Part shown: positions 3 through 42,594 of the stretch, in pieces
How the letters are laid out: every line of letters starts with the position of its first letter
Numbering within the stretch: the stretch's first letter is position 1
NCBI GenBank assembly: GCA_964648105.1
Contig: CAZYMH010000003.1
Coordinates: forward strand, 22,164 to 86,163
Source: an uncultured Candidatus Saccharibacteria bacterium
Lineage (GTDB): Bacteria; Patescibacteriota; Saccharimonadia; Saccharimonadales; 2-12-FULL-41-12
Direction of reading: 5' to 3'
Length of the DNA stretch: 64,000 nucleotides
The notes under the pieces: model-generated
Databases searched by the model: none
What the model was told of the DNA's origin: nothing
What the model saw: only the letters and a program-made list of their open reading frames with translations
Position numbers and translations under genes: made by a program

Positions 3-1190
3 GTGCTACTTAATCAAGATGTCGGTAGAGCAGATGGAAAAAAGCCTCAAAGTGTTGTGATCTATTATCCTATTTATGCCTCATCAGTTAAAGATGATGT
101 CGCCACAGTTGACCAGAGAAGAGCAAGTTTAATCGGCTATACTTATGCCATTGCCAGAATCGACGATATTATTGCCAATCTGAAAGGACTAGAATCATCG
201 ACAGAATATAAAATTACTGATATTACTTCGAGCCAACCAGAAATTATCAAAAATTATAATTTTCCTGATTCCTTAAATTCGAGTTCTAATGACGTTGGTT
301 CAGAGGTGATTAATATTGCGGGTCGGAAGTGGCAACTTTTGGTCCATGCCAAACTCCAAAATGACAGTATTTTTAATTATCCTGTGGTAGTTTTTATGAC
401 GTCTTTACTGGCCAGCATGACCGTGGCTTGGATGGTGTATATGTACTTGAATCGTCGCTTTAGATTTGTGCGAGAAGTTTACAAAAACGAAGTCGAACAA
501 ACAAAAAATGATCTTTTAGCGTTGGCTTCTCATCAACTGCGAACTCCTGCTACTGGGGTAAGGCAATATATAAATATGCTAATCAATGGCTATTTTGGTA
601 ATTTGACAGATGAACAACTGGCAATTGCTCTTAAAGCCCACTTATCTAATGAACGTCAATTAGAAGTTATCGACCAAATTTTGTATGTCGCCAAAGCCGA
701 TATTGACCAGTTGGCCATGAACTTCGAAGAAATCAACTTAACTAGCTTAACCAAAGACGTGGTTGATACTATGGAAGACACCATCAAACACAAAGAGATG
801 ATAATTAAATTTTCATCAAATCCTAAAGAAATAAAGTGCATAATAGATAAAAAATATATGCGTATGATTATCGAGAATTTACTTAGTAACGCTATCAAAT
901 ATTCTCATCCCAAATCAAAAATTTATATCAAACTCACCAAAAAACATAAACTTATTAAGCTTTCAATTAAAGATAACGGTGTCGGAATTGAAAAAGCTGA
1001 TATTGAGAAATTATTTGTAAAGTTCTCTAGAATACCCAATGCTTTATCAAGAAAAGAAGGCGGCACTGGCTTAGGCTTGTTTTTGGCTAAAAAACTGGCC
1101 GAGGCTCACAGGGGTGATATAGAGGTAATTAGCGAGAATAGCAAAGGCTCAGAATTTATCTTAAGTTTACCGACAAAATTTTCTAAGTAA
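3..1190 (+). CDS. sensor histidine kinase (5'-truncated at window edge)
   Basis: H-box HQLRTPATGV, HATPase_c G-boxes (GGTGLGLFLAKKLAEAHRGDI); the ORF runs off the window start. Confidence 0.8.
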   Translation: MLLNQDVGRADGKKPQSVVIYYPIYASSVKDDVATVDQRRASLIGYTYAIARIDDIIANLKGLESSTEYKITDITSSQPEIIKNYNFPDSLNSSSNDVGSEVINIAGRKWQLLVHAKLQNDSIFNYPVVVFMTSLLASMTVAWMVYMYLNRRFRFVREVYKNEVEQTKNDLLALASHQLRTPATGVRQYINMLINGYFGNLTDEQLAIALKAHLSNERQLEVIDQILYVAKADIDQLAMNFEEINLTSLTKDVVDTMEDTIKHKEMIIKFSSNPKEIKCIIDKKYMRMIIENLLSNAIKYSHPKSKIYIKLTKKHKLIKLSIKDNGVGIEKADIEKLFVKFSRIPNALSRKEGGTGLGLFLAKKLAEAHRGDIEVISENSKGSEFILSLPTKFSK

Positions 1191-33222: not shown

Positions 33223-33912
33223 ATGCGATTAAATAAATTTTTAGCTCAAAATACTGACTATTCTAGGCGAACTAGCGATAGGTTGATCGAACAAGGCCGT
33301 GTCAAAATAAACAATAATTTGGCAAATCTAGGGTCAGAGATAGAAGAGGCTGATAAAGTTTACCTCGACGACAAACTTATTACCAAATCGCTTAATCAAA
33401 TAACGATTATATTCAATAAACCGATCGGTTACATCTGTAGTCGCAAGGGACAAGGTGGCCAGACGATTTACGAAATATTGCCCAAAAAATATCATCATTT
33501 AAAGTCTGTTGGCCGACTTGATAAAAATTCTTCAGGATTACTAGTAATGACTAGCAATGGTGATCTCGCCAATCAACTGACGCACCCTAAATACCATAAG
33601 ACTAAAATTTACCAAGTGACACTCGATAAGTCACTGCAGCCGCTTCATAAACAAATGATTACTGATTACGGAGTGAATTTGGAAGACGGAGTATCTAAAT
33701 TTGTGATTGAAGACAGCGATCAAGTTGATATGCCGAAAAAATATAGAATAATTATGCAAGAAGGCCGTAATCGTCAAATCCGTCGAACATTTTCGGCTCT
33801 TGGCTACCGTGTAGCTAAACTTCATCGAACAGATTTTGGACCATATAGTTTAGGCGAACTTAAATCAAAAGAGATTAAAATATTAAACTCGAACGTTGCC
33901 GACAAGAGTTAA
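33223..33912 (+). CDS. RsuA/RluB-family pseudouridine synthase
   Basis: N-terminal S4 domain (MRLNKFLAQNTDYSRRTSDRLIEQGRVKINN) and catalytic GRLDKNSSGLLVMTSNGDL motif. Confidence 0.8.
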   Translation: MRLNKFLAQNTDYSRRTSDRLIEQGRVKINNNLANLGSEIEEADKVYLDDKLITKSLNQITIIFNKPIGYICSRKGQGGQTIYEILPKKYHHLKSVGRLDKNSSGLLVMTSNGDLANQLTHPKYHKTKIYQVTLDKSLQPLHKQMITDYGVNLEDGVSKFVIEDSDQVDMPKKYRIIMQEGRNRQIRRTFSALGYRVAKLHRTDFGPYSLGELKSKEIKILNSNVADKS

Positions 33913-34473
33913 ATTAGGCGATTTATCAACTCCTAAAAATGAGCCAATTAATCCACTATATTTAGCATATGAAGTTCCATGGTGTTGGACTTTGCCAATT
34001 CCAGCCTTTTTCATTACCTCATCAGCATTGCAACCGACCACTGAACTCATCGTAATTGATCCAGTCAGCATAACTAGTCCATAATTATCTTGAGGAGTCT
34101 TAATGCGGCTGAAAACATCTTGATGCCAATCATCTAATGTTCGTAGTCCGCCCGGTTTTTCTATCTCAATTAAATCTTCAAAAATAATAGTGTGCCCATT
34201 GGAACGGCGAGAGCTGGATAAAAACTTTCTAGCTCTTTGGTATTGCTTCTCGGCTAAATTAAAGGGAATTTCAGGATCATGAACACCTACAAACTGAACA
34301 TTTTGATCAAATTTATAATCATCCTTGGCTAGCCCTGCTGCACCCATAACTCTAAAAAGTTGATCTTTCCACTCATTTTCTTGTTTTTTGCCAAAAAATA
34401 ACAGTTCTGGCTGAGGTAATCCAAAAATTACTAGGTTATTTTGGCTGCGGTTATTTATTTCGATTTGATTCAA
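33883..34473 (-). CDS. hypothetical protein (weak LOG/SLOG-like motif)
   Basis: PGGLRTLDD resembles the LOG PGGxGTxEE motif, but the motif order does not fit canonical LOG. Confidence 0.25.
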   Translation of the reverse strand: MNQIEINNRSQNNLVIFGLPQPELLFFGKKQENEWKDQLFRVMGAAGLAKDDYKFDQNVQFVGVHDPEIPFNLAEKQYQRARKFLSSSRRSNGHTIIFEDLIEIEKPGGLRTLDDWHQDVFSRIKTPQDNYGLVMLTGSITMSSVVGCNADEVMKKAGIGKVQHHGTSYAKYSGLIGSFLGVDKSPNLTLVGNVRV

Positions 34474-34554: not shown

Positions 34555-35126
34555 TTATGACCTGAAGGGGGGGACTTGTAACTCTTTCCAAAATAGTACA
34601 CCAGCCTGTGTACTATATATGTTATCAATGACTGGCTCAGGTTTGGTAAGAACGTAGCCTAAGCCATCTGTAGTATATAAGCCTGATGCCTCTTTGTTAT
34701 TGATCATTGTTTTGCTCAATTTATCTTGATCAACCAAAGTCGCCACACCTACCCCTCTATCTGGGGCATCTAACTTATTAATTATCCTAGAGAGGATTTG
34801 GTAGTCTAGGCATGGTATCTGACCGCGATTTGTGGGCCTATAGCTGCAAATTTCGAGTCTTTTTATTTGGCCTTGCATTCTCCGTCGGAAGGTCCCCGTA
34901 ATTCCCCGAAGTGGTGATTCATTTTCGATAATATCTGGGCTTCTCATGTCCACTAAAACCCACTCTGAACAAACCAGCTTACCAAGATTACGTTTAGCCA
35001 TTTGCCTCATCGCAATACCTACCAACAATTCGTCAGATGCTTTTGAAGGCATTGGCAAAACAATCAATCGATCTTTCATAGATTGAAAAGTGCCTAATTT
35101 AGGATTTAATTTAAGTATCTCACTCA
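34555..35126 (-). CDS. hypothetical protein (start moved to internal Met)
   Basis: the ORF-track start at 35358 overlaps der by 170 bp; internal ATG at 35126 (MSEILKLNPK) removes the overlap. Confidence 0.3.
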
Positions 35127-35188
35127 TTTTAGCAATTATGTTATATAAATAGTTTTTAGTCAACTTATTATCTGTTATAATATATACA

Positions 35189-36628
35189 ATGAGTAAGAAA
35201 AAACTACCAATTGTGGCGATTGTTGGCCGAGCTAATGTCGGCAAATCTAGTCTATTTAACGCAATTCTAAACCGTCGTGAAGCGATTGTCTTTGATGAGC
35301 CAGGTACAACTCGCGATTCGATTATTGCTAAAGCTAGTATAGAGGTTGTCGAAGACAAAAAGTTAGTAAACCAAAATTTTTGGCTAGTTGATACAGCTGG
35401 ACTTAAAGATGCAGCTGATGATTTTGAAGCAACAATCCAGGACCAAATTATTCAAGCAGCCGACTCAGCTGATGTAATCATGGTAATGGTCGAGGCAAAT
35501 ACTACCATCACCGAAGAAGACAGACGAGTTGCCAAAATGGCTCTTAGGTCTGGTAAGCCAGTTATTTTAATAATTAATAAGATCGATAAAGCTAAAAATA
35601 CAGATGTTAGCCACTTTGAGAGGTTAGGCATTAAAGCCATATTTGAAACATCAATCCCTCAATATCGCGGTCTAGAAGAACTAACTGATCACTTAGGCGA
35701 AATCCTGCCTAAAGTAAGCCAAGAAGATGACGAAAACCGCATACGTTTAGCGATTTTAGGTAGACCGAATGTTGGTAAGTCGGCCTTATTTAACTGTTTA
35801 TTAAAAAAACAGCAAGCCGTTGTGTCTAATCGAGCTGGTACAACCCGCGACATTAATCGCAATCTTATCCGCTATAAAAATATCGAAATTGAACTAATGG
35901 ACACAGCTGGTATACGTCGTAGCGGCAAGATCGAGAAGGGAATCGAGAGATTTAGTGTAATCCGTAGTTTAGCAGCTATCGAGCAAGCTGATGTCTGTTT
36001 ATTGCTGATTGATGCAAATGAATTAAATGTTCAGCTTGACCAAAAAATTGCTGGCATGATAAAAGAGTCAGGTAAGGGGTTAATTTTGGTGGTTAGTAAA
36101 TGGGATAGTATCGAGAAAGACGCTTTTACTCGCGATACAGATACTGCCCCCAAAATTGCTCATAATTTTGATTTTGTCCCTTGGGCTCCATTAATTTTTA
36201 CTAGTAGCGTATCGGGTCAAAATGTAAGTAAAATATTTGAGTTAACACTTACAATTATTGATGAGCGAGCAAAGCGTATCAAAACAACCGAGCTTAACCG
36301 TTGGCTAAAAAAAGTAACTGATCGTCATCCACCAGCTGGCCTAAAAAATCGGACTCCAAAACTCAATTACATCACTCAAGAAACAGATAACCCAACACCA
36401 GCTTTCAAAGTTTTTGGCTCACATACAAAGTTTATCCACTGGAGTTATCGTCGCCATATGGAACGACGCTTACGAGAAGAGTACGAGTTCAATGGTACCC
36501 CTGTACAATTTTGGTTTATCGAGAAGCATGACACCCATAAACATGGCCTGAGTCCTACGCGAGATGGCGACGCACGAGCCAAAGCAATTCGCCAAAAACG
36601 AAGTCGCAGCAAAGTAAAAAATAATTAG
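35189..36628 (+). CDS. der: ribosome-biogenesis GTPase Der (EngA)
   Basis: tandem GTPase domains (GRANVGKSSLFN, GRPNVGKSALFN, DTAG twice) plus KH-like C-domain; basic C-terminal tail. Confidence 0.9.
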   Translation: MSKKKLPIVAIVGRANVGKSSLFNAILNRREAIVFDEPGTTRDSIIAKASIEVVEDKKLVNQNFWLVDTAGLKDAADDFEATIQDQIIQAADSADVIMVMVEANTTITEEDRRVAKMALRSGKPVILIINKIDKAKNTDVSHFERLGIKAIFETSIPQYRGLEELTDHLGEILPKVSQEDDENRIRLAILGRPNVGKSALFNCLLKKQQAVVSNRAGTTRDINRNLIRYKNIEIELMDTAGIRRSGKIEKGIERFSVIRSLAAIEQADVCLLLIDANELNVQLDQKIAGMIKESGKGLILVVSKWDSIEKDAFTRDTDTAPKIAHNFDFVPWAPLIFTSSVSGQNVSKIFELTLTIIDERAKRIKTTELNRWLKKVTDRHPPAGLKNRTPKLNYITQETDNPTPAFKVFGSHTKFIHWSYRRHMERRLREEYEFNGTPVQFWFIEKHDTHKHGLSPTRDGDARAKAIRQKRSRSKVKNN

Positions 36629-36640
36629 GAGCAAAATAAA

Positions 36641-37309
36641 GTGGGATTATTTCAACGCAACACCTTTACAAATGACAGTCCGTTATATGAGATAGTCGAC
36701 CCTAAGTCGATTACAGGTACGAATTTAGGCATTCCTCAAACTGTACTAATAATTGGCCTTGGCAATATCGGCACAGAATATAATGGTAGTCGCCATAATT
36801 TAGGCTTTGAAATGCTAGATTATTTTGCTCAGATCAATGATTTTCCGAAGTGGTCCCTTAGCAAAAGTCGGTTTTGCCATGAAACATCAGCAACCATAGC
36901 TGGTAAAAAAATCATTTTAGCCAAACCGACTACCTATATGAACGACAGTGGTAAGGCAGTAAAAGCCATGCAGACTTTTTATAATATTAAATCAGAGCAA
37001 ACACTCGTTTTGCACGACGAACTCGATATAAATTTTGGGCAAATTCGCACCCGCGTTGGTGGCGGAAGTGCAGGCAACAATGGTATCAAATCGATTATCG
37101 AGGCGACTAGTGACAATTTTGGCCGAATTCGAGTTGGTATTGGCCCCAAAAAACCAACTAATATTGATTCGGCAAATTATGTTCTTGGCAAATTTACTCA
37201 GGCAGAAATTAAAAATTTAGCAGAAATTAAGGTCGAAATTGCCAGTATTTTAAGTGAGTATATCTCGCTAGGTCAACTAACCGAAGAAACTCGTCATATC
37301 ATTTTTTAG
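36641..37309 (+). CDS. pth: peptidyl-tRNA hydrolase
   Basis: IIGLGNIGTEYNGSRHNLGF ... HDELD motifs; GTG start with a ~35-aa N-terminal extension. Confidence 0.85.
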   Translation: MGLFQRNTFTNDSPLYEIVDPKSITGTNLGIPQTVLIIGLGNIGTEYNGSRHNLGFEMLDYFAQINDFPKWSLSKSRFCHETSATIAGKKIILAKPTTYMNDSGKAVKAMQTFYNIKSEQTLVLHDELDINFGQIRTRVGGGSAGNNGIKSIIEATSDNFGRIRVGIGPKKPTNIDSANYVLGKFTQAEIKNLAEIKVEIASILSEYISLGQLTEETRHIIF

Positions 37310-37504
37310 GGCCAGACAAACTATCGACAATAAATATCATGGGTTTAATGGCTACTTCGCCGATATACTTCATCAATTGCCAACTCCTAGAGAATACATC
37401 GGGTGAGGGCGGTGATTTTTCGGGACTAAACATACCTTTTATCATACCAAAATTATTTTGAAATTTAGAGATATATAGATAAATAATTAATTACATAATT
37501 TAAT

Positions 37505-37895
37505 TTCAACAAAAAAGAGCCTCCAGAGGGGGTGGGCACCGCTGGAAGCTCATTTTCGAGCTCGAAACCACGTATGGCTCAAGCTCACAATATACCCTTC
37601 AACCCACCTTGAAGGCCTTCCAAATAAGTTATTTTCGAAAAAATAAATAGATGGACCCACTCATAGGTTGTGACGTCAATCCACCGCGGCTCAACTAAAA
37701 CGAGGGGGGAATGCGTGGTTAAAGGGACTCTAGGGCTAACAAACTTTGTTAAACCAAGAGTTTGCCCCTAGAGCATCTGGCAAATCCAGATGAGGTTGTA
37801 GTATAGTTATAAAAGTAAGTGGAGGGTACAACTTACAAACTATTTTTATACCTTGCACACTTAAAGGTCCTGTTTGATCAAACTAAACACGACAT
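37505..37895 (-). ncRNA. unclassified structured RNA candidate
   Basis: GC-rich ORF-free segment dense in perfect short hairpins; ends on the minus strand with a terminator (GAGCTTCCAGCGG...CTCTGGAGGCTC + TTTTTTG). Confidence 0.3.
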
Positions 37896-38023
37896 TAAAG
37901 TGTACACTCTAAGAACAATCTAACTTTTGGGGTATGGAATGTACCAAGCAATAAATACATCTATTGCTTACAGATTGACATTTTAGCAAAGAAATTACAT
38001 TATGTCAATACTTTTTAACTAAT

Positions 38024-38902
38024 TTGTTATTTATGCAAGATTTCACTATAAAAACCTTAAGCACTAATCAACTACCAGATTCGCTAACTCGGCTTCACAA
38101 TCCACCGCCGAAATTATATCTGAAGGGTAATTTTGATCTGTTACAGTCGAACTTACCCAAAGTAGGTATAGTCGGAGCCAGAAAATTTACACCTTATGGT
38201 CGTCAAGTTACTGCCGATTTAAGTTCGGCACTAGCTAGGGCAGGGGTAGTTGTTGTTAGTGGACTTGCCTTAGGGGTTGATAGTATAGCTCACAAAGCTT
38301 GTCTTGATAGTAATGGACAGACTATTGCGGTTTTGCCGTGCGGAATTGACACAATTTACCCATCGTCTCATTATCAATTAGCCAAAACAATTTTAGCTAA
38401 AAACAGTCTATTGGTCAGTGAATACGAGGGCAAAACTTCGCCCAAGAAATATAATTTTATCGAACGCAACCGTATAATTGCTTCACTTTGCGATATTTTG
38501 ATCGTAACAGAGGCTGCTGAGGCTAGTGGCAGCCTCCATACGGCTAGTTTTGCCCTAGAGCAGGGGATAACGGTTATGGCCGTACCTGGCAATATAACTA
38601 GCCCGTACAGTCAAGGCACCAACAAACTAATCCAAAATGGTGCATACCCAGTTCTAAAACCACAAGATGTAACAGATCTATTGGGCTTGAAAGGTCATAT
38701 AAACACACTAACTTATAGCTATTTACCAAAAAATCCTCGAGAAAAACTAATTATCGATAGCTTATCCGGTTGCCAACTGACAACCAATGATCTGATAAAA
38801 CAGACCAAGATTGAACCAATCGAACTTCAAACAACACTCACACTTATGGAAATTGAGGGAGTTGTTGAGGTAGACAATGCTTTATGGCGTCTGAAACTAT
38901 AG
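38024..38902 (+). CDS. dprA: DNA-processing protein DprA (Smf)
   Basis: VGIVGARKFTPYGRQV ... VVVSGLALGVDSIAHKA Rossmann motif and C-terminal winged-helix region. Confidence 0.85.
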   Translation: MLFMQDFTIKTLSTNQLPDSLTRLHNPPPKLYLKGNFDLLQSNLPKVGIVGARKFTPYGRQVTADLSSALARAGVVVVSGLALGVDSIAHKACLDSNGQTIAVLPCGIDTIYPSSHYQLAKTILAKNSLLVSEYEGKTSPKKYNFIERNRIIASLCDILIVTEAAEASGSLHTASFALEQGITVMAVPGNITSPYSQGTNKLIQNGAYPVLKPQDVTDLLGLKGHINTLTYSYLPKNPREKLIIDSLSGCQLTTNDLIKQTKIEPIELQTTLTLMEIEGVVEVDNALWRLKL

Positions 38903-41559: not shown

Positions 41560-42594
41560 ATGACCCAAACAGAATTAGAAAACCTGACAAAATCTATACT
41601 CGAAACTATCGATCGTGAACGTGAAAGAGAAATCGTTTCTCGGAGATATGGTCTTTATGATCGCAAAGAGACCCTTGAGCAAATCGGGGAGCTTTTGGGC
41701 ATCACTCGAGAAAGAGTCAGGCAGCTCGAAAAAGCAACTATGACTCAGCTCAGGCATATGGCCGAAACAGGTGAATTACCTCAGTTAAATAAAGTCCAAA
41801 AAACAATTTTTGACCAATTGAACAAAATGGGTGAGGCTAGTCGGATTGCTGTCTTATCGGAAGCTTTAAGCGGTTCAACCCCCACCAAAATTGATCAGAG
41901 TCGTTTGAGTTTTATTGTTGAATTATGTCCAGATCTTACTCTAATCACCGAAGATGATAACTTCTTTCAATCAGCTGTAGTTACCAAAACTCATGATCAA
42001 AAACTGTTTAACAAACGGGTTAACGGCTTTGTGGAAGCCTTGAAAAAAGTCGGCGAGCCAGTCGCTATTGAAGAACTAGCAAAAGAAGCAAAACACACAG
42101 GTAGCACCGAAAATGCCCAAGGATTAGCTTCAACTTCTAAGAAGTTAGCGACACTCCACGATAAATGGGGTTTAATCAAGTGGCCAACTGTAAACCCAAA
42201 AAACATTCGCGATAAAATATATGTAATTTTGCAGCAAAATGGCAAGCACATGCATTTCTCAGAAATTGCAAAAGCTATCAAAGATTCTGAGTTCAAACGA
42301 AAAAACGTCACCACTCAAGCTATTCATAACGAACTAATCAAAGATAAACGATTTATTTTAATCGGTCGAGGAATTTATGCTCTAAAAGAGTGGGGCTATA
42401 AGAAGGGAACAGTCGCCGATATTATTTCCGAAATCTTAAAGCAGTCAAAAGAACCTCTTCACCGCGATGAAATCGTTAAACGAGTACTAAAAAGCCGCTA
42501 CGTCAAAGAAACTACCATCCTTCTAAATTTACAGGGCAAAAAGCAGTTTAAACGAGTTGCCAAAGCCACTTATACACTCGATAACAGCAAATAA
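41560..42594 (+). CDS. sigma-70 region-4 HTH + HARE-HTH domain protein
   Basis: N-terminus ETLEQIGELLGITRERVRQLEKA is a sigma70_r4-type HTH; C-terminal half (HFSEIAKAIKDSEF ... GRGIYALKEWGY) matches the HARE-HTH signature. Confidence 0.45.
   Translation: MTQTELENLTKSILETIDREREREIVSRRYGLYDRKETLEQIGELLGITRERVRQLEKATMTQLRHMAETGELPQLNKVQKTIFDQLNKMGEASRIAVLSEALSGSTPTKIDQSRLSFIVELCPDLTLITEDDNFFQSAVVTKTHDQKLFNKRVNGFVEALKKVGEPVAIEELAKEAKHTGSTENAQGLASTSKKLATLHDKWGLIKWPTVNPKNIRDKIYVILQQNGKHMHFSEIAKAIKDSEFKRKNVTTQAIHNELIKDKRFILIGRGIYALKEWGYKKGTVADIISEILKQSKEPLHRDEIVKRVLKSRYVKETTILLNLQGKKQFKRVAKATYTLDNSK

Follow-up and report, generated by a model that had tools for sequence, protein, structure and literature searches.

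Between pth and dprA (Pfam matches to Pth, E = 2.6e-54, and to DprA, E = 3e-73), the 64,000-nt stretch of Saccharibacteria DNA that we analyzed (the window) contains a gap of 714 bp, for which the ORF list gives nothing but mechanical ORFs of 33 to 48 aa. These ORFs are not conserved and the indels are not multiples of three, and we rejected a coding role for the element described here on these grounds. An initial annotation had proposed that the gap contains a GC-rich, hairpin-dense element and that the minus strand of this element specifies a structured RNA that is stable. The predicted RNA is indeed richer in GC than its surroundings (0.42, and 0.47 over positions 37511 to 37800, compared with 0.32 and 0.20 in the remaining parts of the gap and a window mean of 0.375). 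Folding of the minus strand gave -153.4 kcal/mol (z = -7.0), and none of 100 shuffled sequences was equally stable, implying structure beyond chance; the plus-strand fold had a z score of -3.7.

The minus strand carries a promoter with 11 of 12 consensus matches, plus the TG of an extended -10 element, and its position places the start of the RNA near 37975. The element is real but longer than the ~390 nt, reaching to 37900, of the initial annotation, by ~75 nt on the upstream side. We placed the 5' end by reference to the promoter (±3 nt) and let the 3' end be set by the T-run of an intrinsic terminator, a G+C-rich hairpin followed by a run of T residues at 37551 to 37511. The terminator had been recognized as a textbook one in the initial annotation, in which its loop was overlooked as an invariant element in itself; a simple terminator scan, which allowed loops of at most 8 nt, missed the hairpin because its loop has 9 nt. 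The features of the gene are collected in Table 1.

Table 1. Predicted features of the RNA gene and its promoter region, in the 5'-to-3' direction of the RNA (window coordinates)
Feature	Position	Strand	Sequence or property	Basis or occurrence
RNA promoter	37980-38008	-	-35 TTGACA at 38008-38003, 17-bp spacer, extended -10 TGcTAAAAT at 37988-37980	
Promoter-like dprA site	37975-38003	+	TTGACA-17-CATTAT; full overlap with the opposite-strand RNA promoter	
Whole predicted RNA	37511-37975	-	~460 nt; homologues 309-569 nt	
P1, 5' hairpin	37944-37971	-	GUAAGCAAUA...UAUUGCUUGG	compensatory changes in 10/11 pairs
J1/2, conserved single strand	37925-37943	-	UACAUUCCAUACCCCAAAA in the window; consensus GCACCUUAUACCCCC	
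P3a and P3b, 5' strands	37907-37924	-	GUUAG (P3a 5' strand in relatives), AUU, GUUCUUAGAG (P3b 5' strand)	alignments
Lineage-specific inserted hairpin	37854-37906	-		only window and L001; alignment, predicted fold
P4 hairpin with invariant loop L4	37815-37836	-	UACCCUCCAC at 37828-37819; resembles the 16S rRNA 3' tail (anti-Shine-Dalgarno)	
P5, variable hairpin	37774-37792	-	CAUCUGG/CCAGAUG	sequence and length differ among relatives
P3b, 3' strand	37764-37773	-	CUCUAGGGGC	fold and alignments
Lineage-specific insertion	37727-37763	-	at consensus ACAnACUAAC site; second GUUAG...CUAGAG copy, can pair with 37773-37764	
P6, 5' strand	37718-37726	-	CCCUUUAAC; long-range helix, pairs with 37603-37595	
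P7 hairpin within P6	37672-37717	-		fold
P8 hairpin within P6	37606-37668	-	ACCUAUGAGUGGGUCC...GGAAGGCCUUCAAGGU	fold
GGUGGG tract	37603-37608	-	proposed pseudoknot partner of terminal-loop CCCACC	complementarity
P6, 3' strand	37595-37603	-	GUUGAAGGG; pairs with 37718-37726	
P9, optional hairpin	37558-37586	-	contains palindrome TTCGAGCTCGAA	window, L001, L002, L003, L076, L133
P10, 3'-terminal (terminator) hairpin	37517-37551	-	GAGCTTCCAGCGG...CTCTGGAGGCTC; invariant 9-nt loop UGCCCACCC at 37538-37530	
T-run of intrinsic terminator	37511-37516	-	TTTTTT	directly after P10

Distribution and conservation of the RNA gene

Homologues of the RNA are present in all 11 Saccharibacteria dprA loci examined (with a separate tally of 6/6 for loci obtained by way of DprA), whereas the 66 dprA loci of other phyla have none. 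Metagenome contigs contributed at least 120 further loci, forming 77 clusters at 92% identity. These loci were gathered with a sequence pattern that itself imposes the invariance of P6 and GGUGGG, so that only the 11 loci obtained by way of DprA give independent support for the invariance of these two elements. A covariance model, which covers the 5' domain of the RNA only, found one match per locus.

Main-clade loci have the RNA between dprA/topA and pth, with its neighbors dprA, topA, pth, and der on the opposite strand. The gene can be as near to pth as 47 nt or more than 4.7 kb away from it, with other genes inserted between the two. A divergent, Nanosyncoccus-like clade, which was recovered independently, retains the RNA in a rearranged neighborhood, with topA on the RNA's own strand beyond the terminator. 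The single-copy, syntenic gene is thus not a mobile element or repeat. At a DprA identity of ~40%, the core sequences, namely, P6 CCCUUUAAC/GUUGAAGGG, the loop UUACC(C)UCC, and the terminal loop UGCCCACCC, are unchanged, and the RNA core is conserved more than the neighboring proteins.

The control signals are kept as well. In 113 of 125 loci, the RNA is preceded by TTGAC[AT]...TAnnnT (a contig end cuts most of the others), and the promoter of the Nanosyncoccus clade reads TTGACA-17-TGnTATAAT. The inverted repeat TTGACAT/ATGTCAA at the overlapping promoters is conserved in close relatives. A T-run follows the terminal hairpin in 92 of 108 homologues and is not clear in the other 16.

Covarying helices and invariant loops

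Strong covariation was found in helices P1, P3, and P4 and in the terminator stem. Compensatory changes affect 28 of 34 pairs of the 5' domain in the covariance-model alignment, where 88% of cells are paired (33 to 48% in slid controls), and all 13 pairs of the P10 stem, where 92% of cells are paired. Taken together, the region and its minus-strand promoter and terminator, all kept in relatives, and this covariation support the structured minus-strand RNA of the initial annotation. Its individual stems can all be located: CATCTGG/CCAGATG (37774 and 37786), CCTTCAA/TTGAAGG (37596 and 37609), CTCTAGGGG/GCCCTAGAG, which is read on the minus strand (37765 and 37728 in plus-strand numbering), two palindromes, TTCGAGCTCGAA (37555) and GAAGGCCTTC (37611), and GAGCTTCCAGCGG...CTCTGGAGGCTC (37551 to 37517) followed by TTTTTT (37516 to 37511). 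Two of the local stems, however, are probably not the pairings that evolution has kept. The kept ones are TTGAAGG(G) with CCCTTTAA, over a long range; CCTTCAAGGT with ACCTATGAG; and CTCTAGGGGC with GTTCTTAGAG, which forms helix P3.

In the 5' domain, P3a and P3b are 95 to 97% paired, with compensatory changes in 13 to 15 of 17 pairs; the covariation comparison of P3a with an alternative P2 pairing had little variation to draw on. In the predicted fold of the window, strand 37907 to 37924 pairs with 37773 to 37764. The CTCTAGGGG/GCCCTAGAG stem is the pairing of that same 3' strand with the GUUAG...CUAGAG copy in the insertion at 37727 to 37763, and either of the strands UCUAAC and CUAAC can pair with GUUAGA. 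P3 encloses the P4 hairpin, whose loop, UUACC(C)UCC, measures 9 to 11 nt. The P4 stem shows an A-U to C-G exchange in the covariance-model alignment and presents a loop, UACCCUCC, that is invariant in the alignments and replaced by AUUACCUCC in the Nanosyncoccus clade; the mean unpaired probability of L4 over 77 homologues is 0.92. The single strand J1/2 keeps GCACCU in the Nanosyncoccus clade and loses its CCCCC part there.

The second long-range helix, P6, has a median pair probability of 0.77. Its form in the Nanosyncoccus clade, CCCUCUAAC/GUUAGAGGG, represents a compensatory U-A to C-G exchange. Among relatives, at least two distinct arrangements of the P6 interior occur, P9 is absent from most compact homologues, and large insertions in the RNA are confined to peripheral sites. 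The loop of P10, UGCCCACCC, is invariant in 52 distinct sequences, with an unpaired probability of 0.82. GGUGGG, which is complementary to it, is invariant in the five DprA-found Saccharibacteria loci outside the Nanosyncoccus-like clade; in that clade, the tract sits in the loop of another hairpin and the terminal loop is unchanged. This relocation, with the terminal loop kept, supports a putative pseudoknot or kissing contact between the tract and UGCCCACCC, as a relocation of one partner only and not as true covariation of the pair.

Comparison with described RNA families

A search of the whole window with Rfam 15 (cmscan) at the gathering score returned no family for the element. At E ≤ 10, four homologues of different clades (the window, L029, L196, and L090) gave no family of interest, the matches being only junk of the miRNA, snoRNA, and ctRNA terminator-like kinds. 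ARAGORN, including its search for permuted tmRNA, reported only tRNAs in the window and a tmRNA in 0 of 34 homologous loci. The earlier judgment that the element is not RNase P RNA, tmRNA, or SRP RNA agrees with these results.

In its similar size, strong promoter, conserved core that includes a long-range helix and a predicted pseudoknot, and peripheral helices gained and lost among lineages, the RNA is reminiscent of bacterial RNase P RNA. However, neither RF00010 nor RF00011 matched at the gathering score or, on the four homologues, at E ≤ 10; the alignments lack the P4 pseudoknot sequences CR-I (GGAAAGUCC) and CR-V (ACAGAA..CGGCUUA); and no P1 joins the ends, the 5' end forming its own hairpin and the 3' end the terminator hairpin. 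We also considered by eye a circularly permuted RNase P RNA, with CCCUUUAAC/GUUGAAGGG as P4 and the enclosed hairpins as P1-P2 and P3, but it fails for lack of the P4 sequences, the bulged U, CR-I/CR-V, and the remainder of the catalytic and specificity domains. The remaining universal RNAs fared no better. For tmRNA (RF00023 and permuted forms), there is no Rfam or ARAGORN match, no T-arm, and no tag frame; for SRP RNA (RF00169/RF01854), there is no Rfam match and the helix-8 motif is absent from the alignments; and for 6S RNA (RF00013), there is no Rfam match, the fold being multibranched with two long-range helices and not a rod of ~180 nt with a large central bubble. There were no local matches to large- or small-subunit rRNA. 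A riboswitch or other cis-acting leader was rejected for lack of a same-strand downstream gene that it could regulate; in the main-clade loci, the RNA's terminator faces the 3' end of pth, and the same-strand topA of the Nanosyncoccus-like clade lies past the terminator.

Among the regulatory RNAs, RsaE/RoxS (Bacillota) and 6C RNA (Actinomycetota) resemble the Saccharibacteria RNA as stand-alone genes with their own promoter and intrinsic terminator, conserved throughout a lineage, whose invariant unpaired C-rich loops could pair with G-rich Shine-Dalgarno regions; such loops are found here in L4 and the terminal loop (0.92 and 0.82 unpaired). The Saccharibacteria RNA, however, is 4 to 6 times longer, has two long-range helices, a predicted pseudoknot, and a conserved multidomain core, and shows no sequence or model similarity to them (no match to RF01066 or RF01820 even at E ≤ 10). 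OLE, GOLLD, ROOL, the raiA motif RNA, and HEARO share with it a length of more than 300 nt, a complex covarying fold in which the core is invariant and the periphery variable, restriction to one lineage, and a function not deducible from context. It matched none of their covariance models and differs in being restricted to Saccharibacteria, single copy, and strictly syntenic, with no evident associated protein genes; GOLLD, ROOL, and HEARO are linked to phages or mobile elements, whereas this RNA is not.

The 3' tail of 16S rRNA, taken here in its textbook form, AUCACCUCC, is the anti-Shine-Dalgarno sequence. L4, as AUUACCUCC in the Nanosyncoccus clade or UUACCCUCC in the main clade, has the same CCUCC core as this tail (...GAUCACCUCCUUA-3'), and J1/2 contains CACCU; unlike the tail, L4 belongs to a different RNA, where it forms the loop of a hairpin and not a 3' end, and in the main clade it has an extra C. 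We regard this likeness as a lead, a case of candidate mimicry.

We found no description of this RNA in the literature on Saccharibacteria or the candidate phyla radiation (CPR), and a preprint on the TM7x transcriptome states that no small RNAs of TM7x have been validated (bioRxiv 10.1101/2022.03.25.485537). The novelty of the RNA lies in the fact that no known RNA family fits it. Thus, the pth-dprA element is almost certainly an independent minus-strand gene, with transcription inferred from its signals, for a stable and highly structured noncoding RNA that is single copy and syntenic throughout the Saccharibacteria and belongs to no described family.

Possible functions of the RNA

RNAs that function through their folded shape typically combine an invariant core with a variable periphery, as is seen here. 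The reading that we tentatively favor, on the basis of sequence comparison, is that the RNA may be a stable, trans-acting folded scaffold displaying anti-Shine-Dalgarno-like C-rich loops. The two long-range helices, P3 and P6, and the loop-to-G-tract contact would create a rigid core that exposes pyrimidine-rich single strands, and the G-rich partner bound by these strands would be one of two, either the Shine-Dalgarno-like GGAGG(G) stretches of mRNAs or, alternatively, a factor that normally recognizes the 16S 3' tail. With either partner, an abundant RNA of this kind would tune translation initiation or small-subunit biogenesis. Base-pairing small RNAs are usually far smaller and less deeply conserved, which counts against this reading, as does the loss of the CCCCC part of J1/2 in the Nanosyncoccus clade. 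Moreover, a Shine-Dalgarno-like motif was found for 13 of the 47 genes in the window, many of which look leaderless, so that only a minority of genes would be within reach of Shine-Dalgarno targeting. L4 might just as well bind a protein or dock within the RNA itself.

It is possible, if somewhat doubtful, that the invariant loops are sites of protein contact or of RNA-RNA docking and take no part in Shine-Dalgarno pairing, the RNA being a Saccharibacteria-specific ribonucleoprotein RNA or scaffold, or a self-assembling structural RNA like OLE, ROOL, GOLLD, and raiA, in which the GGUGGG:CCCACC contact could be intermolecular. Its size, its conserved core with peripheral expansions, its strong promoter, and its lineage-wide single-copy gene would suit such a role, as would the invariance of P6 and the loops while other helices covary freely, and the shift of the G-tract shows that what matters is the contact and not its position. 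However, no candidate partner protein is linked to the gene, which is flanked, on the opposite strand, by ordinary housekeeping genes, and the same evidence fits the anti-Shine-Dalgarno scaffold alike. Less likely, the RNA senses a ligand or is catalytic, as an orphan small RNA of the riboswitch type or a ribozyme would be, with the junctions, P6, and the pseudoknot as its pocket or active site. Invariant nucleotides do cluster at the junctions and in the pseudoknot involving the terminator hairpin, and the choice of UCUAAC or CUAAC as the partner of GUUAGA is a possible switch. Against this, no locus compared has a same-strand gene downstream to control, no cleavage-site signature was seen, and Rfam 15 gave no match to a riboswitch or ribozyme family.

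The gene might also act in cis, with its strong promoter occluding the divergent dprA/topA promoter or with read-through antisense to the convergent pth, the RNA itself being secondary. The back-to-back, overlapping promoters conserved in close relatives and the 16 of 108 homologues that have no clear T-run are consistent with such an effect, but occlusion needs neither 300 nt of covarying structure nor invariant loops, the distance to pth varies widely, with other genes intervening, and the Nanosyncoccus clade keeps the RNA despite its rearranged neighbors; we consider this reading quite improbable. The idea of an extremely diverged or rearranged universal RNA (RNase P, tmRNA, SRP, or 6S RNA) missed by standard models is the least credible and seems to us very improbable. 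Its size, signs of abundance, and universality would suit a housekeeping RNA, and ACAnAC...CCCUUUAAC and GGGUUGAAGGGUG bear a loose likeness to what we take to be the sequences of CR-V and E. coli GGGUGAAAGGGUG, respectively. For a Nanosynbacter genome, PGAP annotates no more than 2 ncRNAs (PMC8830319), and CPR RNase P RNAs can fall below Rfam thresholds (PMC8172020); that same study, however, found RNase P RNAs with recognizable features via RF00010 in 35 of 35 CPR genomes, including two Saccharimonadia (PMC8172020), and locus L090, which has the Saccharibacteria RNA, has no RF00010 match. The failure of RF00010, RF00011, and the tmRNA, SRP, and 6S models on four homologues at E ≤ 10, the lack of an ARAGORN tmRNA in the window or the 34 loci, the two ends that form separate hairpins and do not pair with each other, and the lack of P4 (GGAAAGUCC/ACAGAA..CGGCUUA), a T-arm, a tag frame, a helix-8 motif, or a central-bubble rod all argue against this idea as well.

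A conserved folded core that matches no described family makes this RNA a candidate new housekeeping or regulatory RNA, and as a new class (300 to 570 nt, strongly promoted, single copy, and syntenic) it would extend the small set of large structured RNAs recognized in bacteria. The locus also matters for annotation; in public assemblies, it is empty or occupied by apparently spurious ORF calls. Saccharibacteria, which are ultrasmall parasitic bacteria and, to our knowledge, the only cultivated members of the Patescibacteria (CPR), are now genetically tractable, and the gene coordinates, structural model, invariant loops, and proposed pseudoknot offer a concrete experimental target. The RNA may possibly prove to be an unrecognized housekeeping RNA of the Saccharibacteria, a lineage-specific ribonucleoprotein subunit, ribozyme, or sensor as universal there as RNase P RNA and tmRNA are elsewhere. 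If so, it might be connected with their epibiotic lifestyle or with a translation system that is reduced and largely leaderless.

The RNA gene between pth and dprA

The 714-bp gap between pth and dprA contains only mechanical ORFs of 33 to 48 aa, so that the initial annotation was right to call the region free of ORFs. The GC richness that it had noted also held: the GC content is 0.47 over 37511-37800, compared with a window mean of 0.375 (0.42 for the RNA as a whole, 0.32 and 0.20 in the other parts of the gap). Every stem and palindrome that it had reported is present where it had been placed, and the minus-strand terminator is as described. The element was correctly recognized, and its extent required revision by about 75 nt, as the position of a near-consensus promoter puts the start of the unit near 37975 on the minus strand. 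Measured from this promoter-derived start to the T-run, the RNA is ~460 nt long. Strong promoter and terminator signals in the sequence thus show the predicted RNA to have the layout of an independent gene. The minus-strand fold (−153.4 kcal/mol; z = −7.0) was equaled in stability by none of 100 shuffles, and the same shuffle comparison gave z = −3.7 for the plus strand. Together with conservation and compensatory changes, the minus-strand value supports the proposal that the element is a structured RNA read from that strand, as judged by sequence and folding models.

The RNA promoter and a dprA promoter-like site overlap fully, forming an inverted repeat, TTGACAT/ATGTCAA (37975-38008). Close relatives keep this arrangement, and other lineages use a palindromic TTGCAA. 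RNA polymerase would have room for one promoter at a time, so that the strong promoter of the RNA may curb expression of dprA/topA.

Features of the locus and of the predicted RNA, in the window and in the Nanosyncoccus-like clade
Feature	Position	Strand	Description
pth	36641-37309		Pfam Pept_tRNA_hydro, E=2.6e-54
dprA	38024-38902		DNA_processg_A, E=3e-73
RNA promoter	38008-37980	minus	TTGACA-17 bp-TGcTAAAAT; 11 of 12 matches plus TG; near-consensus
RNA promoter boxes	−35 38008-38003; −10 37985-37980	minus	
dprA promoter-like site	−35 37975-37980; −10 37998-38003	plus	
RNA terminator	hairpin 37551-37517; T-run 37516-37511	minus	hairpin followed by TTTTTT
P1			5' hairpin
J1/2			GCACCUUAUACCCCC; follows P1
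P2			optional hairpin, UCUAAC/GUUAGA
P3a			GUUAG/CUAAC; long-range helix with P3b
P3b			consensus GUUUUAGAGC/GCUCUAAAAC; long-range helix with P3a
P4			hairpin within P3; loop L4 UUACCCUCC
P5			variable hairpin within P3
P6			CCCUUUAAC/GUUGAAGGG; encloses hairpins varying in number and form by subclade
P9			optional hairpin
P10			terminal hairpin; 9-nt loop UGCCCACCC
Peripheral insertions	37906-37854; 37763-37727	minus	
Gene after topA	41560-42594	plus	344 aa
ORF overlapping der	34555-35358	minus	267 aa
Second unmatched ORF	33883-34473	minus	196 aa
Clade promoter			TTGACA-17-TGnTATAAT
Clade P1			present
Clade strand after P1			CGCACCUAAAUAA
Clade P3 equivalent			16-bp helix; A-U to U-A exchange within clade
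Clade L4			hairpin loop AUUACCUCC
Clade P6			CCCUCUAAC ... GUUAGAGGG
Clade terminal hairpin			loop GAUGCCCACCCUU

A conserved two-domain fold with invariant single-stranded elements

Comparison of the homologues shows a fold of two conserved domains with invariant single-stranded elements. P3, P6, and P10 were recovered by RNAalifold unaided. A MAFFT alignment of 39 5' domains had 84% of its cells paired, versus 31 to 46% in slid controls, and P3 within it was 97% paired, with compensatory changes at 13 of 17 pairs. In the model alignment of the 5' domain (80 distinct sequences), 88% of cells were paired (33 to 48% in slid controls) and 28 of 34 pairs showed compensatory changes, a count as high as this occurring in none of 500 shuffles. 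The terminal hairpin, aligned without gaps in 52 distinct sequences, gave 92% (controls, 40 to 54%), with compensatory changes at all 13 pairs and an invariant loop. The invariance of P6 in pattern-derived loci was imposed by the search pattern; among the loci found through DprA, P6 is identical in five, and in the Nanosyncoccus clade one U-A pair has become C-G, a compensatory change, and one U.G pair has become U-A. Single-sequence folding gave P6 a median pair probability of 0.77, and the unpaired probabilities of L4 and the terminal loop were 0.92 and 0.82.

Immediately 5' of the 3' strand of P6 lies a G-tract, GGUGGG, to which the terminal loop has a complementary CCCACC. The Nanosyncoccus clade lacks a G-tract at that place; its GGUGGG is instead found as the loop of an internal hairpin (GUGUGA-GGUGGG-UUACGC, whose stem is altered in locus L195), and the terminal loop is unchanged. 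That one partner moved while the other was kept is good, though not conclusive, sequence evidence for a GGUGGG:CCCACC pseudoknot or kissing contact.

Insertions are confined to the periphery (the P2 loop, the P3b-P4 interval, P5, the P8 tip, and P9) and reach ~250 nt; the window and locus L001 carry two. The second of these (37763-37727), found only in this pair, holds another copy of the GUUAG...CUAGAG strand, so that the P3b 3' strand (37773-37764) has two possible partners; the CTCTAGGGG/GCCCTAGAG stem of the initial annotation is a local alternative pairing of that strand. Both UCUAAC (5') and CUAAC (3') are complementary to GUUAGA (window 37924-37920; columns 62-68, 101-107, and 228-232 of homologue alignment A3), so that most homologues can form P2 or P3a but not both, possibly as a conformational switch or a folding intermediate. 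The 5' UCUAAC copy is absent from eight lineages, the window among them, and L157 has two GUUAGA copies, so that P2 and P3a could form together there. The interior of P6 has at least two unrelated architectures, one of two hairpins with CUCGUUUUAUUUGAG and ACCUAUGAGUGGGCC...GGAGGCCUUCAAGGU and another with GAGCCUAAAUGGUUC and ...GAUGCUUCGCUGGGG, which consists of three to four hairpins. Peripheral modules are thus interchangeable on one and the same core.

Distribution, synteny, and neighboring genes

A DprA search with one genome per species yielded 72 dprA loci from all phyla (6 from Saccharibacteria, 66 from others). The closest DprA relatives are from Candidatus Saccharibacteria MAGs (L001, 70%; L029, 59%; L002, 58%; L057, 53%; L003, 47%), all of which keep the intergenic element upstream of dprA; DprA of the Nanosyncoccus locus L035 stood at 41% in this search. 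Covariance model R1, which covers the 5' domain rather than the full-length RNA and gives rough E-values, matched the window and five of the set's six Saccharibacteria loci, with no match elsewhere in it; the sixth, L035, was missed because its 5' domain has diverged too far. The motif TGCCCACCC lies within a hairpin in all six Saccharibacteria loci and in none of the 66 from other phyla (517 kb, both strands).

Scanning metagenome contigs for two invariant blocks, CCCTTTAAC N81-111 GGTGGGTTGAAGG, identified at least 120 loci carrying the element, a set biased by the search pattern; clustering at 92% identity left at least 77 different sequences of 309 to 569 nt. Among the matches listed, TTGAC[AT]-15..19-TAnnnT occurs at the expected upstream distance in 113 of 125 loci (contig ends cut most others), a T-run follows the terminal hairpin in 92 of 108 homologues, and DprA is 37 to 54% identical to that of the window. 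Synteny is near constant in these matches, with dprA (or topA where dprA is missing) divergent and pth and then der (EngA) convergent, the RNA lying on the strand opposite to all of them. R1 found one genuine match per metagenome locus (99 matches, 100 loci). A weak second match in L077 (4263-4380, plus strand; 34.6 bits, E ~9e-4), which lies immediately downstream of the genuine copy and on the other strand, is probably spurious. In roughly one in four of the metagenome loci among the matches listed (including L074, L078, L097, L101, L114, L117, L118, L129, L131, and L134), no DprA match lies between the RNA and topA, and the RNA is directly upstream of topA; dprA seems to have been repeatedly lost or moved and the RNA retained.

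The L035 homologue is recognizable and much changed. DprA homologues 63 to 71% identical to that of L035 led to four more loci with distinct sequences (L193, L195, L196, and L198), and in all of these loci the RNA has the same form, ~320 nt between topA and dprA. In this clade, by contrast, topA is found beyond the terminator of the RNA and on the same strand as it. Public gene calls of 104 to 126 aa without a Pfam match run antisense over the RNA gene in L195 (2349-2663) and L196/L197 (2272-2652, plus strand) and are absent from L193 and L198; they are probably false ORF calls, made because the RNA is not annotated.

The gene after topA, syntenic in most loci among the matches listed, combines sigma-70 region 4 (residues 20 to 66) with a C-terminal HARE-HTH domain like that of RNA polymerase subunit delta, two accessory modules of the polymerase in an unusual fusion. 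Two ORFs on the minus strand had no Pfam or NCBIfam match. The longer, which as drawn overlaps the der start by 170 nt, keeps its synteny on the RNA's strand at 31 to 82% identity in most loci among the matches listed and may encode a Saccharibacteria-specific protein. Many gene starts in the window lack a Shine-Dalgarno motif and have a TATAAT-like box only 6 to 12 nt before the ATG (e.g., 19038, 19965, 33223, and 35189 on the plus strand; 18143 and 58993 on the minus strand), so that their mRNAs are probably leaderless.

Identity and possible function

Rfam 15 at gathering score returned only three tRNAs in the whole window. Neither the element nor homologues from three other lineages matched an RNase P, tmRNA, SRP, 6S, rRNA, riboswitch, or large-ncRNA family at E ≤ 10, L090, which carries the RNA, gave no RF00010 match, and ARAGORN found no tmRNA in the window or in 34 homologous loci. 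Inspection agreed, in line with the initial annotation, which could not match the element to RNase P, tmRNA, or small SRP RNA: it lacks the end-closing P1, the P4, and the CR-I/CR-V of RNase P RNA, the T-arm and tag frame of tmRNA, and the SRP helix-8 motif, and its fold is branched rather than rod-like. The RNase P RNAs of CPR bacteria can be diverged; RF00010 recovered RNase P RNAs with recognizable features in 35 of 35 circular CPR genomes from more than one clade, two Saccharimonadia among them (PMC8172020). A universal RNA in hidden form is a very improbable identity. As no gene follows on its strand ahead of the terminator, the element is not a riboswitch or leader; single copy and synteny exclude a mobile element, and indels and compensatory changes exclude a coding sequence. 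The open-access literature yielded no description of a structured RNA like the element in Saccharibacteria or CPR: according to a TM7x transcriptome preprint, no small RNAs have been validated in TM7x (bioRxiv 10.1101/2022.03.25.485537), the locus goes unmentioned in the Southlakia genetics paper, and PGAP annotation of a Nanosynbacter genome reported two ncRNAs only (PMC8830319).

We infer a stable, abundant RNA that works in trans as a folded particle. Its conserved core and variable periphery are typical of RNAs that work as three-dimensional objects. Among the invariant elements, only the pyrimidine-rich L4, UUACC(C)UCC, and GCACCU(U) have no intramolecular partner that is conserved, and the 16S rRNA 3' tail, AUCACCUCC, differs from L4 of the Nanosyncoccus clade by one base. 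We tentatively favor a scaffold displaying an anti-Shine-Dalgarno-like loop, which would bind GGAGG(G) stretches of mRNA, or a factor recognizing the 16S tail, thereby modulating translation initiation or 30S biogenesis. Two points weigh against this reading: many window genes look leaderless, a Shine-Dalgarno-like motif preceding only 13 of 47 gene starts, and purely base-pairing RNAs seldom reach such a size or such deep conservation. A dedicated RNP or self-assembling RNA is nearly as likely as the displayed loop, a sensor or ribozyme is unlikely, and an effect exerted mainly in cis by the overlapping promoters is more doubtful still. Whichever function applies, the element is, by its sequence, a new RNA family, present in every Saccharibacteria locus examined and well defined by sequence, structure, and context.
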